A stretch of 63,588 bases of DNA, the filler included, from Octopus bimaculoides (taxonomy: Eukaryota): the NCBI RefSeq assembly GCF_001194135.2. It is 3 parts of 3 records of this genome, joined end to end, with 100 filler letters (N's around TTAATTAATTAA, not from the genome) between each part and the next. Parts side by side here need not be neighbours in the genome. Positions count along the whole stretch, not along the records: positions 1 to 30,732 come from NC_068994.1; positions 30,833 to 54,043 come from NC_068989.1; positions 54,144 to 63,588 come from NC_068983.1. One strand, given 5' to 3'. Below are positions 5,300 through 61,665 of the stretch, piece after piece (the stretch's first letter is position 1; each line of letters opens with the position of its first letter). Under the pieces are notes generated by a model, which ran no database searches, had not been told where the DNA came from, and saw nothing but the letters and a program-made list of their open reading frames with translations. The position numbers were made by a program, and so were the translations under genes.

Positions 5300-5336
5300 C
5301 TTTTATGTTTCATCCTAACAATCTTCAGCAGAACAA
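5300..5336 (-). ncRNA. Degenerate minimal type I hammerhead relic
   Basis: The minus strand reads tt CTGCTGA A GATT gttag GAT GAAAC AT A aaag. The layout matches 30552, with A6C, a 1-nt loss in stem II and ACGT>ACAT. Confidence 0.35.
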
Positions 5337-5658
5337 CGTCGTCATCGTCTCGATATATTTATTGATTACTGTATTCTTCCACCATCCTATAACTATTTAA
5401 CTGTGTATGTGCGTGTGTGTGTGTATCGATCACTCTTATGAATGCCAAATGGGTAGAATGGTTCGCGAAAGCAATGTTAAAAAGTCTGAAACACGTCTCA
5501 TTACTTTCACCAATTGGTCGGATAGACCAAATCCGTTCCAATCTGCATTATATACACCCCGCCCCATATATATATATATATATATATATATATACGGTGG
5601 TGCATCAGCATGGCCGCAGCTCTAGGCTGAAACTATAAAAGAAAGATATATATATATA

Positions 5659-6022
5659 GGCTGGCTGTGTGGTAAGTAGGTTGCTTACCAACCACATGGT
5701 TCCGGGTTCAGTCCCACTGCGTGGCACCTTGGGCAAGTGTCATCTACTATAGCCTCGGGCTGATCAAAGCCTTGTGAGTGGATTTGGTAAACGGAAACTG
5801 AAAGAAGCCCGTCGTATATATATATGTGTGTGTGTGTGTGTGTTTGCGTGTCTGTATTTGTCCCCCCAACATCGCTTGACAACCATGCTGGTGTGTTTAC
5901 GTCCCCTTAAATTAGCGGTTCGGCAAAAATGACCGATAGAATAAGTACTAGGCTTACAAAGAATAAGTCCTGGAGTTGATTTGCTTGACTAAAGGCGGTA
6001 CTCCAGCTTGGCCACAGTCGAC
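5659..6022 (+). mobile_element. SINE family A, full-length copy
   Basis: Head ggctggctgtgtggtaagtag...ggttcagtccc, internal (TA)n(TG)n, tail ending aaggcggtactccagcttggccacagtc. Confidence 0.9.
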
Positions 6023-6397
6023 TTTGCTAAAAAAAATCAGAAACCATGGCCCAAGAGATAGGTGGTAAATGTTTGTATTTTTCATTCCCTTCGAAGTTTT
6101 ATCCCTAATAGTGGTTTGGATTTTGGCTATTCCTTCTAGCGTGTCAGGAATCCTATGATGGATACCTCTTATGGGTTTAAATGTACACTGTATTTATATG
6201 AATAATATATAGTCGATTGACTAATTTTTCTACACGCTAGGTCACTGGTAGTAAAAATTTCAAAAACTTTTATTACCCTGATATTATCAATTATATATAT
6301 ATATATATATATATATATATATAAATTAATAAAAGATGAAAATGGAGAAATTGACATACAGACATCAATTTATTCAAAGATATTCAAATCAATATAT

Positions 6398-6520
6398 GAA
6401 ATTCTTATCCCTACAGCCGTTTCCATATCCAATTAATTCAATTAGAGAAATTAAATTAAATTAATTTAGAATTTTCATGTTAAAACCGGTTAATTGGGTA
6501 TTTCATTAGAGGAGAATTTC
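6398..6520 (-). ncRNA. Type I hammerhead-like fold with long stem II (G5A core change)
   Basis: The minus strand reads gaaattctcct CTAATGA a atacccaattaa ... ttaattggatat g GAAAC GGCT GTA ggga ta agaatttc. Stem II has 12 bp with 1 mismatch and stem I is extended across a bulge. Confidence 0.55.
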
Positions 6521-7211
6521 CCAGAAGGAGTTACATGCTAACGCGTTGGTCGACCCTTGACAGACTCATACATATATATATATGGGTGGTCTGAAGGAGA
6601 CGTGAAATTTAGTAACACCCAGAACAGGACCCATACCTGAAAGTCTGCAGCAGTGTGAGTGCATTCTGCTAAAGACACTCAAAGACCAAGTGATAATGTT
6701 AAACCAGGCAAGGAATTAAAATTAATTACCACATATGAGTAAATACATGCGAATACATCTGTACAATCTATTATTGTGTAAAAACACTCATGTTTTTACG
6801 CACAACAAAAAAATCCCATTACAAATATACATCACGTGTGCATAAATGTATATGTATGTATGTGTGTGTGTGCGTGTGTGCGTGCGTGCTCGCCTGTGTG
6901 TTGTATATGTGTGGGCATGTTTCTTACTGATTGAACTTTCAATGTTTGTTTTGACTGCTCAAATTGCTTCGTGGCTTGCAGGATTGCGAAGAAAAAAAAT
7001 ATTCACGAAAGAGTGTCTTGTTTCTTTGTGTGTGTGTGTATGTATGTGTGTGTGTGTGTGCACGTGTGTGTGTATATACATTATGTATAAAGTTATGTGT
7101 ATTTGTATGTCTATATGTGTGTGTATACATAGACACACACACACACACATATATATATATATATATATATATATATATATACATACACATGAATATATGC
7201 ATGCACACATA

Positions 7212-59182: not shown

Positions 59183-59877
59183 TATTTATATATATAGAGA
59201 GAGAAAGACAGAGAGAGAAGTGTAATGTATGTATGTATTTACGTGTGTGTAAAGCGAGCGGGGGTGGTGGTGATTAGTGTAGTCACGTGACTTTTACCAT
59301 ATGGTCCCTTTCTTAGTGACCATCTGTTGTACATGTTACATTGGAATGAGGGGAACATTTTTTTTTTCGCTCTCAGCCACGCACGCACACGCACCCTCGC
59401 TCGCACTATCACACGTACACGCACACACGCATACACTCACGCATATATCGCACACACACACCCATGTACCTGTATGCGATTGTGTGTGTTTGTGTGTGCA
59501 TGCGTGTGAGTGTGCGCGCGCGCACTCAAACACAACATGTCCACATATAACGCATATACAGAAACGCATCCTCACACCCACGCACATTCTTCCGCATCCG
59601 CTCTCTTCGACATTCACCCATTCCTTTTTCCATCTCTTTTAACTTTCCTCTGCTCTCCTTTTCTACACTTCGTCCTCTCGTCTTCACTCTCATTCTTACC
59701 CCCTCCTCTTTCTTGTATTCTATTCCCCGCCTCTCACTCTCCCTTTCTTTTCTCCTCATCTCTTCCTCCTTTTCTTTTTATTATATTCTTTGTATATTTT
59801 GTCACTAATCTCTTTACTTCTTTTCATCTCCGCTGTTTCATTTTTATTATTATTATTATTATTATTATTATTATTAT

Positions 59878-60179
59878 CATTGTTCAGTAGTTTTATTTTT
59901 ATAACGTGCTTTCACTTCACTACCGAGCGCAGCTCTGTGCGCCTTGGGTATGTGCTGTGGTTTGCTGTGGTGCTCTTATGTTTACTGTATTGAAAGTGTT
60001 TTGCGTAGAATGTGTGCAGTACCCAGTAGTGCAATTTTCTGTATGTTATATATATTTGTAAGTCCTGGTGTTTTTGTTATGTATTTGTCTGAATATTTTT
60101 TTTATTATACCTAAGGCACCTACTATGATAGGAATTGTTTCTGTTTTTAGATTCCACATTCGAGTTACCTCTATTTCCA
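59878..60179 (-). mobile_element. 5'-truncated R4/Dong LINE inside a (TAA)n tract
   Basis: It matches 51575-51810 and is flanked by (TTA)n on both sides. Confidence 0.88.
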
Positions 60180-60267
60180 TTATTATTATTATTATTATTA
60201 TTATTATTATTATTATTATTATTATTATTATTATTATTCATTTTACCTCCCACAGATTTCTATATAG

Positions 60268-60388
60268 AAGGAAATCGGCAACCTGCGGCCCGCTGAAAAC
60301 TCACCTTGAATTATTTTGGCAGCGCGGCCCGCCAGATGATTGATTATGCATCATGCGACTCACTTCTCGAAAACGTTGGCCATACCTG
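60268..60388. mobile_element. Small hAT-like non-autonomous element
   Basis: tcggcaacctgcggccc..gcggcccg..gttggccatacctg are Charlie-type terminal motifs. The TSD is poor. Confidence 0.5.
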
Positions 60389-60787
60389 ATATATATCTCC
60401 AAAAATAAATACATACATAAATGCATGCATACATACATACATACATACATACATACATACATACATACATATATACATACATACATACTGTGAGTGGAAC
60501 GGTAAAAATATGCAAGACATTTCTCAAGTTCTAAATGTGAAATTGTCTGTGTTAACAACATCCCAAATATGCAGCCTTGTATCTTTGTTGGAAACTGGCT
60601 CCCTCCTCAGTGGAAGATTTCTAATAATTAAAAATATAGAAGACATACATACATACATACGGTTCAAGACACAAATGTGATTAGAAAAATACAAGAGACC
60701 CATTGATAAAAAGTTTGCAAATCCAGCAACCAAGAGACACTTTCAGTTTCATACCTATTATTATTGAAGCAACAAGATACATACCAA

Positions 60788-61665
60788 TAGTTTTTCTTGT
60801 ATCACCGATAGAGCTTCACCAGTTGGGACTTTGGTGAACAAGCTTAGTGGTTATTTATAAGTCCCAATTGGTGAAGCACTATCGGTGATACAAGAAAAAC
60901 TAGTGACAGACACCCATCTAAAAGAACGCACTAGTATACCAATAAGAAACTTGATGGAAACGTTGACCTTCTGTGTAGAAACTACCTACTTCAGTATGGA
61001 CAATGATATATATCGACAAGAAGAGGGTTTAGCTATGGGTTCGCCATTATCACCAATAATAGCCAATATATACATGGAATTCTTTGAGAATTTGGCTTTA
61101 AGATCAGCACCACTAAAACCAACCCAATGGCTACGATATGTTGATGACACCTTTATACTCTGGAAAGCCATCCATACAGTTCACAGCGGAAAAGGAAAAA
61201 GACAATCAGCTGGCATTCTTGGGCGTATTAATAATACGCACAAGTATGGATTCAGGACATCCGTATACCACAAACCGACCGTCACTGGATGATACCTCAA
61301 CTTTAATTTCCACCATCCAAACAGTGTAAAGAGAGGGATTGCTCAGTGCCTAAAACATCGTACAAAGAATATAAGTAGCGATCGTGATAGTCACCATGAA
61401 GAAATAACCAAGCTCAATAACAATCTGTTAAGCAACAACTAACCCAAAAGTATACTAACCACTCCAATTATAAAGTAGAGAGAGGATGAAGCCAATAAAC
61501 TGTCCACTGTCTGTCTACCCTATGTGAAGGGCCTCTCCAAAAAGATACAAAAGATATGCGGCCCATATGACATCAGGACAGTGTTCAAGAGTAATACAAC
61601 GCTTCGCAAATATCTCCTTCGAGTAAAACCACCAATAGAAGAGAATATGACCAAAGACTACGTGT
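60788..61665 (+). mobile_element. Penelope-like element RT fragment with 5' fold-back
   Basis: KVPIGEAL, YRQEEGLAMGSPLSPIIANIYME, WLRYVDDTF, IQFTAEKE..LAFL, TSVYHKPT and LPYVKGLSKKI..IRTVFK. It runs into a gap before the expected GIY-YIG domain. Confidence 0.92.

Follow-up and report, generated by a model that had tools for sequence, protein, structure and literature searches.

In a stretch of 63,588 nucleotides of the Octopus bimaculoides genome (the window, three parts of three records joined with filler letters), four sites have the layout of a minimal type I hammerhead, each with an imperfect core. On balance, these sites are likely to be decayed solo copies of short tails derived from Penelope-like elements (PLEs), with the module at 30502-30679 being a non-autonomous derivative of such a PLE tail. 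They likely represent solo minimal hammerheads of PLEs, a kind known since 2014, rather than tandem retrozymes. The general idea is already in print, and because solo minimal hammerheads and non-autonomous PLE derivatives have both been published (PMC4209133; bioRxiv 10.64898/2026.07.22.740005), the system is taken to work like this known kind. The new point is a high-copy family with U in place of A at core position 6 (A6U), which standard descriptor searches would miss; apart from U6, the finding is an expected extension of the 2014 result to another animal genome.

The claim of the original prediction that a multi-copy family carries the hammerhead fold and ends in TA tracts was borne out for the one module tested with reads, that at 30502-30679, and the wider claim of several families of small elements holds for this one family, the plural resting on four unrelated single copies. 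Reads from 4 of the 24 listed runs (two DNA and two RNA-seq, the latter sampled at about 6% of each run) were aligned to 30488-30694, which gave 8,439 DNA contigs in run X1, 6,198 in run X14 from a second species, and 2,843 of 12.9 million and 2,581 of 12.0 million RNA reads, or about 220 reads per million. Summed depth, which is not itself a copy number, divided by a single-copy depth of about 41 would place the copy number in a rough bracket of about 2,500 to 80,000, with and without a 31-fold overlap correction. The module occurs in thousands of contigs and is non-coding, with stops in all six frames, and repeat catalogues may already list the family. Its 3' end is fixed, as the commonest loose ends in all four runs, behind 30666, lead through identical terminal letters and on into sequence rich in TA. 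At the 5' end, contigs that reach the (AT)n tract share two junction letters at 76-91% of depth (about 90% in X1 and 76% in X14), and these letters are common to 28-29 X1 contigs and 22-34 X14 contigs. Within the window, self-BLAST found, among the matches listed, no second copy of a module except the inverted 3' end at 30704-30732.

Two variants of the family deserve mention. One continues upstream at 30506 (median 94 letters), and its 30 visible upstream letters can pair back to the 5' part of the element through 10 base pairs, as a head-to-head inverted copy would. The other, at 30571, has an internal deletion that removes the first half of the core in 309 of 2,843 and 207 of 2,581 RNA reads, with 97% agreement; one X1 contig of single-copy depth has a similar 50-base skip, and the deleted variant may be one highly transcribed locus.

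In its majority form, the family at 30557 agrees with CUGANGA, GAAA and UH at 12 of 13 letters (N7 left free), with the right spacing, and has both stems, the unpaired base and the G10.1-C11.1 pair. The departure is at position 6, where the family-majority core reads CUGUUGA against the consensus CUGANGA. No alternative letter at this position (30560) is found among the 40 variant rows listed at an 8% threshold (4 weaker rows lie beyond, and about 1,350 X21 reads cover the region), and U6 was read directly in an X14 loose-end line. U4 makes up 97% (X1) and 98% (X14) of DNA depth, and the RNA reads carry it at 87% and 92%; a C at this core position (CCGTTGA) is private to the window copy, the family majority being CTGTTGA. 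At position 17, 53% of X21 reads have C and 12% have A, and C accounts for 31% of the depth in X1 and 1% in X14. The cleavage triplets of the family are GUC, GUU and GUA, and C, U and A at this position all fit the NUH rule. Stems I and II do not vary in either DNA run, and neither does the remainder of the core. Polymorphism (8-92%) falls in X1 on none of the 32 constrained hammerhead positions versus 17 of 140 others (Fisher p 0.025), and in X14 on none of 32 versus 13 of 140 (p 0.06), with five free positions (N7, N17 and loop II) set aside; when these are included, the X1 figure becomes 1 of 37 (p 0.07).

Because of U at position 6, self-cleavage of the tested family cannot be assumed, and no pile of RNA read ends was found at the cleavage site (position 17) among the two RNA-seq runs. 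Two other accounts of the core were discarded. In an alternative register, which reads UUGAAGA with U3 and occurs in one S. kowalevskii family, neither stem forms. A lock of the RNA in an 'off' hairpin by U6, where U4-U7 are predicted to pair with A14-G16.2 at 0.65-0.81 probability, was set aside because a control with the canonical core shows misfolding of equal stability (-9.4 against -8.7 kcal/mol), so that the pairing is not evidence specific to U6.

A bolder reading, which is possible but doubtful, is that a short PLE-derived element with thousands of copies in two related animals carries U for A6 while its fold is kept under selection, either as a working slow A6U ribozyme (dimer- or Mn2+-dependent) or as a pure handle for protein recognition. 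If true, descriptors that fix CUGANGA miss whole high-copy ribozyme-derived families in animal genomes, and counts made with them are underestimates. Like the A6C variants (Perreault et al. 2011, PMC3088659; Naghdi et al. 2020, PMC7151607), the family has a natural pyrimidine at position 6. A6C cleaves slowly in Mg2+ and better in Mn2+, changes at position 6 strongly lower rates in Mg2+, and U4C is a slow but tolerated viroid variant (PMC3088659, PMC7151607). A6C, however, is known from single phage or viroid ribozymes with C6, whereas U6 is here the majority state of a high-copy animal repeat. In the literature listings searched, which lay largely outside subscription papers, no report of a natural hammerhead A6U was found, and the one listed paper with both terms concerns twister ribozymes. 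The role of hammerheads in PLEs is an open question, as they cut poorly in vitro and Naiads spread without them, and it has been suggested that hammerheads may parasitise PLEs (PMC8557442). A high-copy family in which both stems are kept and a core change is fixed offers a direct test of whether cutting or shape matters for mobility.

The original prediction had listed six hammerhead folds. All six coordinates correspond to real sequence and mark the outer ends of stem I, and the four stem III palindromes named as perfect are present in the sequence. Four of the folds stand, in that their stem I is in register and their stem III palindromic (6509 on the minus strand; 28830, 30557 and 47897 on the plus strand), and two do not, since 5328 on the minus strand and 57230 on the plus strand have the core only (Table 1). 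Stem I lies directly beside the core, with 4-6 pairs, in four of the six sites, and the stem III palindrome is perfect at 28830, 30557 and 47897, with one mismatch at 6509. Stem II is short at 30557 and 47897, and 61-79 nt occupy the same place at 28830 and 6509. The unpaired base after A9 and the G10.1-C11.1 pair are present at 30557, G-U replaces G-C at 47897, and this arrangement is absent from 28830 and 6509. All four stem-bearing copies carry one or two core mismatches, a perfect CUGANGA/GAAA/UH core being found in none of them, and the fold z-scores are weak across the six sites (-1.8 to +1.3). The density of stem-bearing sites in this single window is 4 per 56.8 kb of called bases.

Table 1. 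Hammerhead-like sites, the repeat module and the PLE relic in the window
Feature	Position	Strand	Description
Minimal type I hammerhead fold, supported	30552-30588	+	stem I of 5 Watson-Crick pairs; core CCGTTGA, 2 mismatches; unpaired A; stem II GAGC/GCTC; GAAA; stem III ACGT; triplet GTT
Minimal type I hammerhead fold, supported	47891-47941	+	stem I of 6 Watson-Crick pairs; core CCGATGA, 1 mismatch; unpaired A; stem II with 4 of 5 pairs; 12-nt palindromic stem III; triplet GTC; in a module of about 135 bp (47849-47982) flanked by two TA tracts
Type I hammerhead layout, plausible but atypical	28825-28914	+	stem I of 5 Watson-Crick pairs; core CCGATGA; palindrome ACAGCTGT; triplet GTC; branched 61-nt region II in place of a simple stem; with (ACT)n and (TATG)n, rather than TA, after it
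Degenerate type I hammerhead layout, plausible but atypical	6400-6521	-	stem I of 4 pairs; core CTAATGA; ACGGCTGT, 1 mismatch; triplet GTA; AT-rich stem II, 79 nt; in a module of about 250 bp (6324-6571) with a TA tract on either side
Unsupported as hammerhead fold	57230-57260	+	intact core letters and ACATGT; stem I out of register; stem II not formed; core sequestered in another hairpin in the predicted fold
Unsupported as hammerhead fold	5304-5328	-	core letters present; ACAT near-palindromic; stems I and II not formed; fold z +1.27
Module of an abundant short repeat family	30502-30679	+	178 bp; between (AT)16 at 30469-30501 and (AT)12 at 30680-30703
3' end of a second, inverted family copy	30704-30732	-	tail to tail in the same TA tract, then gap
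5'-truncated, frameshifted element, putatively of Penelope/Poseidon type	60785-61665	+	reverse transcriptase, thumb, and linker, ending where the GIY-YIG domain would begin; 5' end duplicated in inverted orientation (60785-60847)

Region II of the 28830 site (28837-28897) is predicted to form two hairpins, a 49-nt branched arm and a 12-nt palindromic hairpin beside GAAA, which would make an unusual extra arm at the junction. A change of U4 to C is seen in three of the four stem-bearing sites (28830, 30557 and 47897) and is private to the copy at 30557; its recurrence may be a matter of chance, may stem from cutting copies having been lost, or may mark a trait of the families at 28830 and 47897.

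The placement of modules between TA tracts, also part of the original prediction, is found at three of the six sites (6509, 30557 and 47897) and fails at 28830, 5328 and 57230, the nearest TA tract being at least 256 bp from the last two. With a 150-bp threshold chosen afterwards, (TA)4 or longer lies on both sides of three of the six sites versus 4.3% of 5000 random positions (p about 0.001). The PLE-tail reading suggests how such a placement could arise. Short tails would be transcribed as passengers inside host RNA, a PLE protein would recognise the 3' end of the tail, and insertion would follow by target-primed reverse transcription at a (TA)n nick, with the reverse transcriptase and GIY-YIG nuclease supplied by the PLE; two copies would sometimes end up tail to tail, as at 30680-30732. 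Integration through a GIY-YIG nick and target-primed reverse transcription is described for PLEs (PMC8557442). Cleavage, if any, would involve two copies pairing through the palindrome, and U6 and the 4-nt stem III would allow at best slow, dimer-only cutting. The fold is thus probably kept as a recognition structure or weak cutter, not as a fast ribozyme, and the window copies, with their further core changes, are probably dead.

The presence of a Penelope-like reverse transcriptase in the window was confirmed by Pfam and by alignment to PLE proteins. RVT_1 is recognised at 60861-61292 (E 3e-8), with 165 longer proteins matched, and the element shows 58% identity to amino acids 190-474 of P0002 across frameshifts, the alignment stopping where the GIY-YIG-like domain of P0002 begins. 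The tail of P0002 shows the pattern YSIPCSC..YKG..H..H by eye, and its nuclease is not named by Pfam. The element's 5' end forms an inverted duplication (60785-60905), an arrangement that has been reported for PLEs (PMC8557442). The linker at 61479-61664 has no CxxC motif, nor do the linkers of the nine relatives inspected, and because it lacks a zinc-finger motif it points to Penelope/Poseidon, judging from the sequence. The element resembles Penelope/Poseidon PLEs (Craig et al. 2021, PMC8557442) in its reverse transcriptase, in the C-terminal GIY-YIG of full-length relatives, with CxC inside its motif, in the absence of a zinc-finger linker and in the inverted 5'-truncated piece. Unlike the (TA)n-biased Naiad and Neptune PLEs, it has no linker motif of the kind hypothesised to drive microsatellite bias in Neptune elements (PMC8557442); Naiads themselves are without canonical hammerheads and are called remnants in cephalopods (PMC8557442). 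A gap of 707 N (61666-62372) follows the element, and then (TA)12; the missing nuclease domain (108 amino acids in P0002) and the tail would fit into this gap. The proposal that the modules are mobilised by this particular element, placed at 60788, found no footing, as its tail falls in the gap and it is without the zinc-finger linker hypothesised for Neptune microsatellite bias.

That the hammerhead likeness is incidental, an effect of hairpin-rich short repeats picked by eye, is highly improbable for the sites as a whole and likely right for 5328 and 57230. A loose descriptor gave 15 matches versus 12.0 in local dinucleotide shuffles (51 of 200 reach 15), so that at this level the motif density shows no excess, and false positives arise easily: look-alikes lie in the terminal inverted repeat of a Mariner-like element (46325 on the minus strand, which pairs with 45443) and inside a long interspersed element (LINE)-like open reading frame (ORF) (40709/40778, plus strand). 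Incidental likeness is favoured further by the weak fold z-scores, the failure of the family core at A6 and the lack of an Rfam match, no hammerhead being found at gathering score in the whole window, among the 150 of 370 weak matches listed, or in any of three short-region scans. Stricter descriptors do exceed shuffles, however. The one with GAAAC..GT-H and a stem I of at least 4 pairs gave 5 matches versus 0.75 (2 of 1000 reach 5), of which four are flagged sites and the fifth is the LINE-like look-alike; the strictest gave 3 versus 0.16 (1 of 1000), and core-only matches were borderline (2 versus 0.35; 48 of 1000). These p-values are optimistic, because the tighter descriptors were tuned on the flagged sites after inspection. 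Moreover, the 30557 family majority, with its 12 of 13 consensus letters and both stems, is nearer the consensus than the window copy, which argues against an accident. The PLE-tail reading is supported by the anatomy of 30557, which fits the published PLE consensus except at position 6, by that of 47897, which nearly does, and by the PLE relic with its typical inverted 5' end in the window. Several observations weigh against it. The family data cover one of the four stem-bearing sites (30557), and tblastn with nine PLE proteins found PLE coding sequence in the window solely at 60770-61664, with no module joined to a PLE ORF. DNA depth amounts to 3.2 million at the module centre but to just 47,000 in the 5' tract, which means that a minority of copies may have the fixed 5' end. 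Of the RNA reads at this end, about 70% belong to the variant that continues upstream (197 and 290 reads), its 30 visible letters being non-TA sequence, and this variant may be part of a PLE or of some longer element. In RNA reads, 3 of 32 constrained and 24 of 140 other positions are polymorphic (p 0.21), a difference that is not significant, partly through CpG decay; kinship among the subfamilies keeps the positions from counting as independent tests, and the alignment is biased towards conserved seeds. Microsatellite targeting also occurs in other retroelement groups, and the mobiliser need not be a PLE.

The upstream variant bears on another reading, conceivable though rather unlikely, by which the modules are the last 130-250 bp of heavily 5'-truncated autonomous PLEs and no separate non-autonomous family exists. 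Most PLE insertions are truncated at the 5' end and have a single terminal repeat (bioRxiv 10.64898/2026.07.22.740005), read depth declines towards the 5' end, and the major RNA variant extends upstream by a median of 94 letters. Depth drops at the 3' edge as well, however, so the slope is partly an edge effect; the 5' junction letters shared at (AT)n by contigs of both species suggest a repeated 5' end and not random truncation, and no obvious PLE protein tail is seen by eye in the 30 visible upstream letters. A quite improbable alternative holds that the modules are monomers of true non-LTR (long terminal repeat) retrozymes, whose tandem masters elsewhere cleave as dimers, circularise and get copied back. 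The size fits (about 300 bp is typical, PMC7229834; the range is 51-972 bp, bioRxiv 10.64898/2026.07.22.740005), as do the lack of an ORF, the palindromic stem III, the solo monomers that are common in Xenopus, and the presence of the family in RNA. The retrozyme label of the original prediction nevertheless could not be upheld. The window holds no head-to-tail tandem units (contigs break in repeats, so arrays may exist elsewhere), end-to-start joints number 2 reads each in X21, below the listing threshold, and none is listed in the two DNA runs. Furthermore, there is no position where many molecules begin or end, the cleavage site included, first mates are equal on both strands (the library may be unstranded), and the core is non-canonical. 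No circle joint stood above threshold in the two RNA-seq runs, although ordinary libraries can miss small circles.

Derivation from PLE tails, the preferred reading, agrees with much of what is published on related systems. The minimal hammerhead consensus of PLEs comprises a U-rich stretch, CUGANGAH, G10.1-C11.1, GAAAN, a palindrome and NUH, and animal genomes hold thousands of solo minimal hammerheads of many families, most such motifs being solo copies that probably come from truncated PLEs and are inactive as monomers and of low activity as dimers (PMC4209133). The sites described here resemble them (Cervera and de la Pena 2014, PMC4209133) in the type I layout, the short stem I, the unpaired base after A9 and G10.1-C11.1 (at 30557), and also in the palindromic positions 15.2-16.2 or short stem III, the U-rich lead-in, the mostly solo occurrence, the many unrelated families per genome and the low activity expected. 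They differ in that the tested family has U6, whereas all 56 representatives of Fig. S3 have A6, most of them found with core-fixing descriptors, and in the very long region II of two sites (61 and 79 nt); no cephalopod is among the species of that paper (PMC4209133). Like non-LTR retrozymes (PMC7229834; bioRxiv 10.64898/2026.07.22.740005), the modules are short, non-coding and AT-rich, with a type I hammerhead and a proposed origin from the pseudo-long terminal repeat (pLTR) of PLEs, and solo monomers occur in both. Retrozymes are defined by tandem hammerhead units and circular RNAs, neither of which was seen for the modules, and the modules are dispersed, three of them in TA tracts. Animal retrozymes have been argued to be non-autonomous PLE derivatives (bioRxiv 10.64898/2026.07.22.740005), and both microsatellite bias and non-autonomous pLTR-bearing derivatives (Chlamys MRC1) have been described (PMC8557442). 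In the literature searched, with the same coverage as above and including passages of PMC8557442, PMC13282606, PMC8967140 and PMC7229834, no report of an octopus or cephalopod hammerhead was found; PLEs make up 6.83% of the O. vulgaris genome in 190 families, and ribozymes go unmentioned in that source (PMC13282606).

Further searches gave the following results. Hammerhead pattern scans found none in viral contigs and none in metagenomes, and two metagenome matches to the family-form pattern, which had no flanks and no match to the window, were put down to chance. Searches with translated modules gave a single match, P0178, an unrelated tandem repeat. A search for sequencing runs listed no RNA run containing 28640-30732, a result that speaks neither for nor against the readings above. 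The candidates at 11115 (minus strand), 13573 (plus strand) and 28554 (minus strand) have half a core each and failed every descriptor, and the microRNA matches in Rfam are microsatellite artefacts.

The window as a whole is repeat-rich, with 37% GC and 23 gaps (6,814 N), about 105 tandem-repeat rows, several interspersed repeat families and fragments of Mariner, LINE and Helitron-type elements. A family resembling short interspersed elements has at least nine pieces (5661-6019, 8477-8842, 28061-28456, 1312-1458, 3768-4021, 14840-15004, 19778-19941, 32303-32422 and 35078-35232), often with (TA)n or (TG)n in mid-element, and a second repeat family has about eight (10098, 13740, 16446, 16676, 19478, 23243, 33272 and 35610). 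Two related decayed LINEs (25553-27381 and 40481-42029) retain pieces of apurinic/apyrimidinic endonuclease and reverse transcriptase, and pieces of a Helitron-type Pif1 helicase and of a Mariner transposase lie at 58101-59006 and 7228-8037. The Mariner-like element at 45443-46325 has 199-bp inverted ends of 82% identity, one of which mimics a hammerhead core. Five long imperfect palindromes have no microsatellite explanation (9030-9123, 15012-15046, 27891-28034, 54463-54573 and 55043-55258), the last of which directly precedes a TA tract and a gap. Finally, two 12-base islands with 44 N on each side (30777-30788 and 54088-54099) are likely gap markers and non-genomic.

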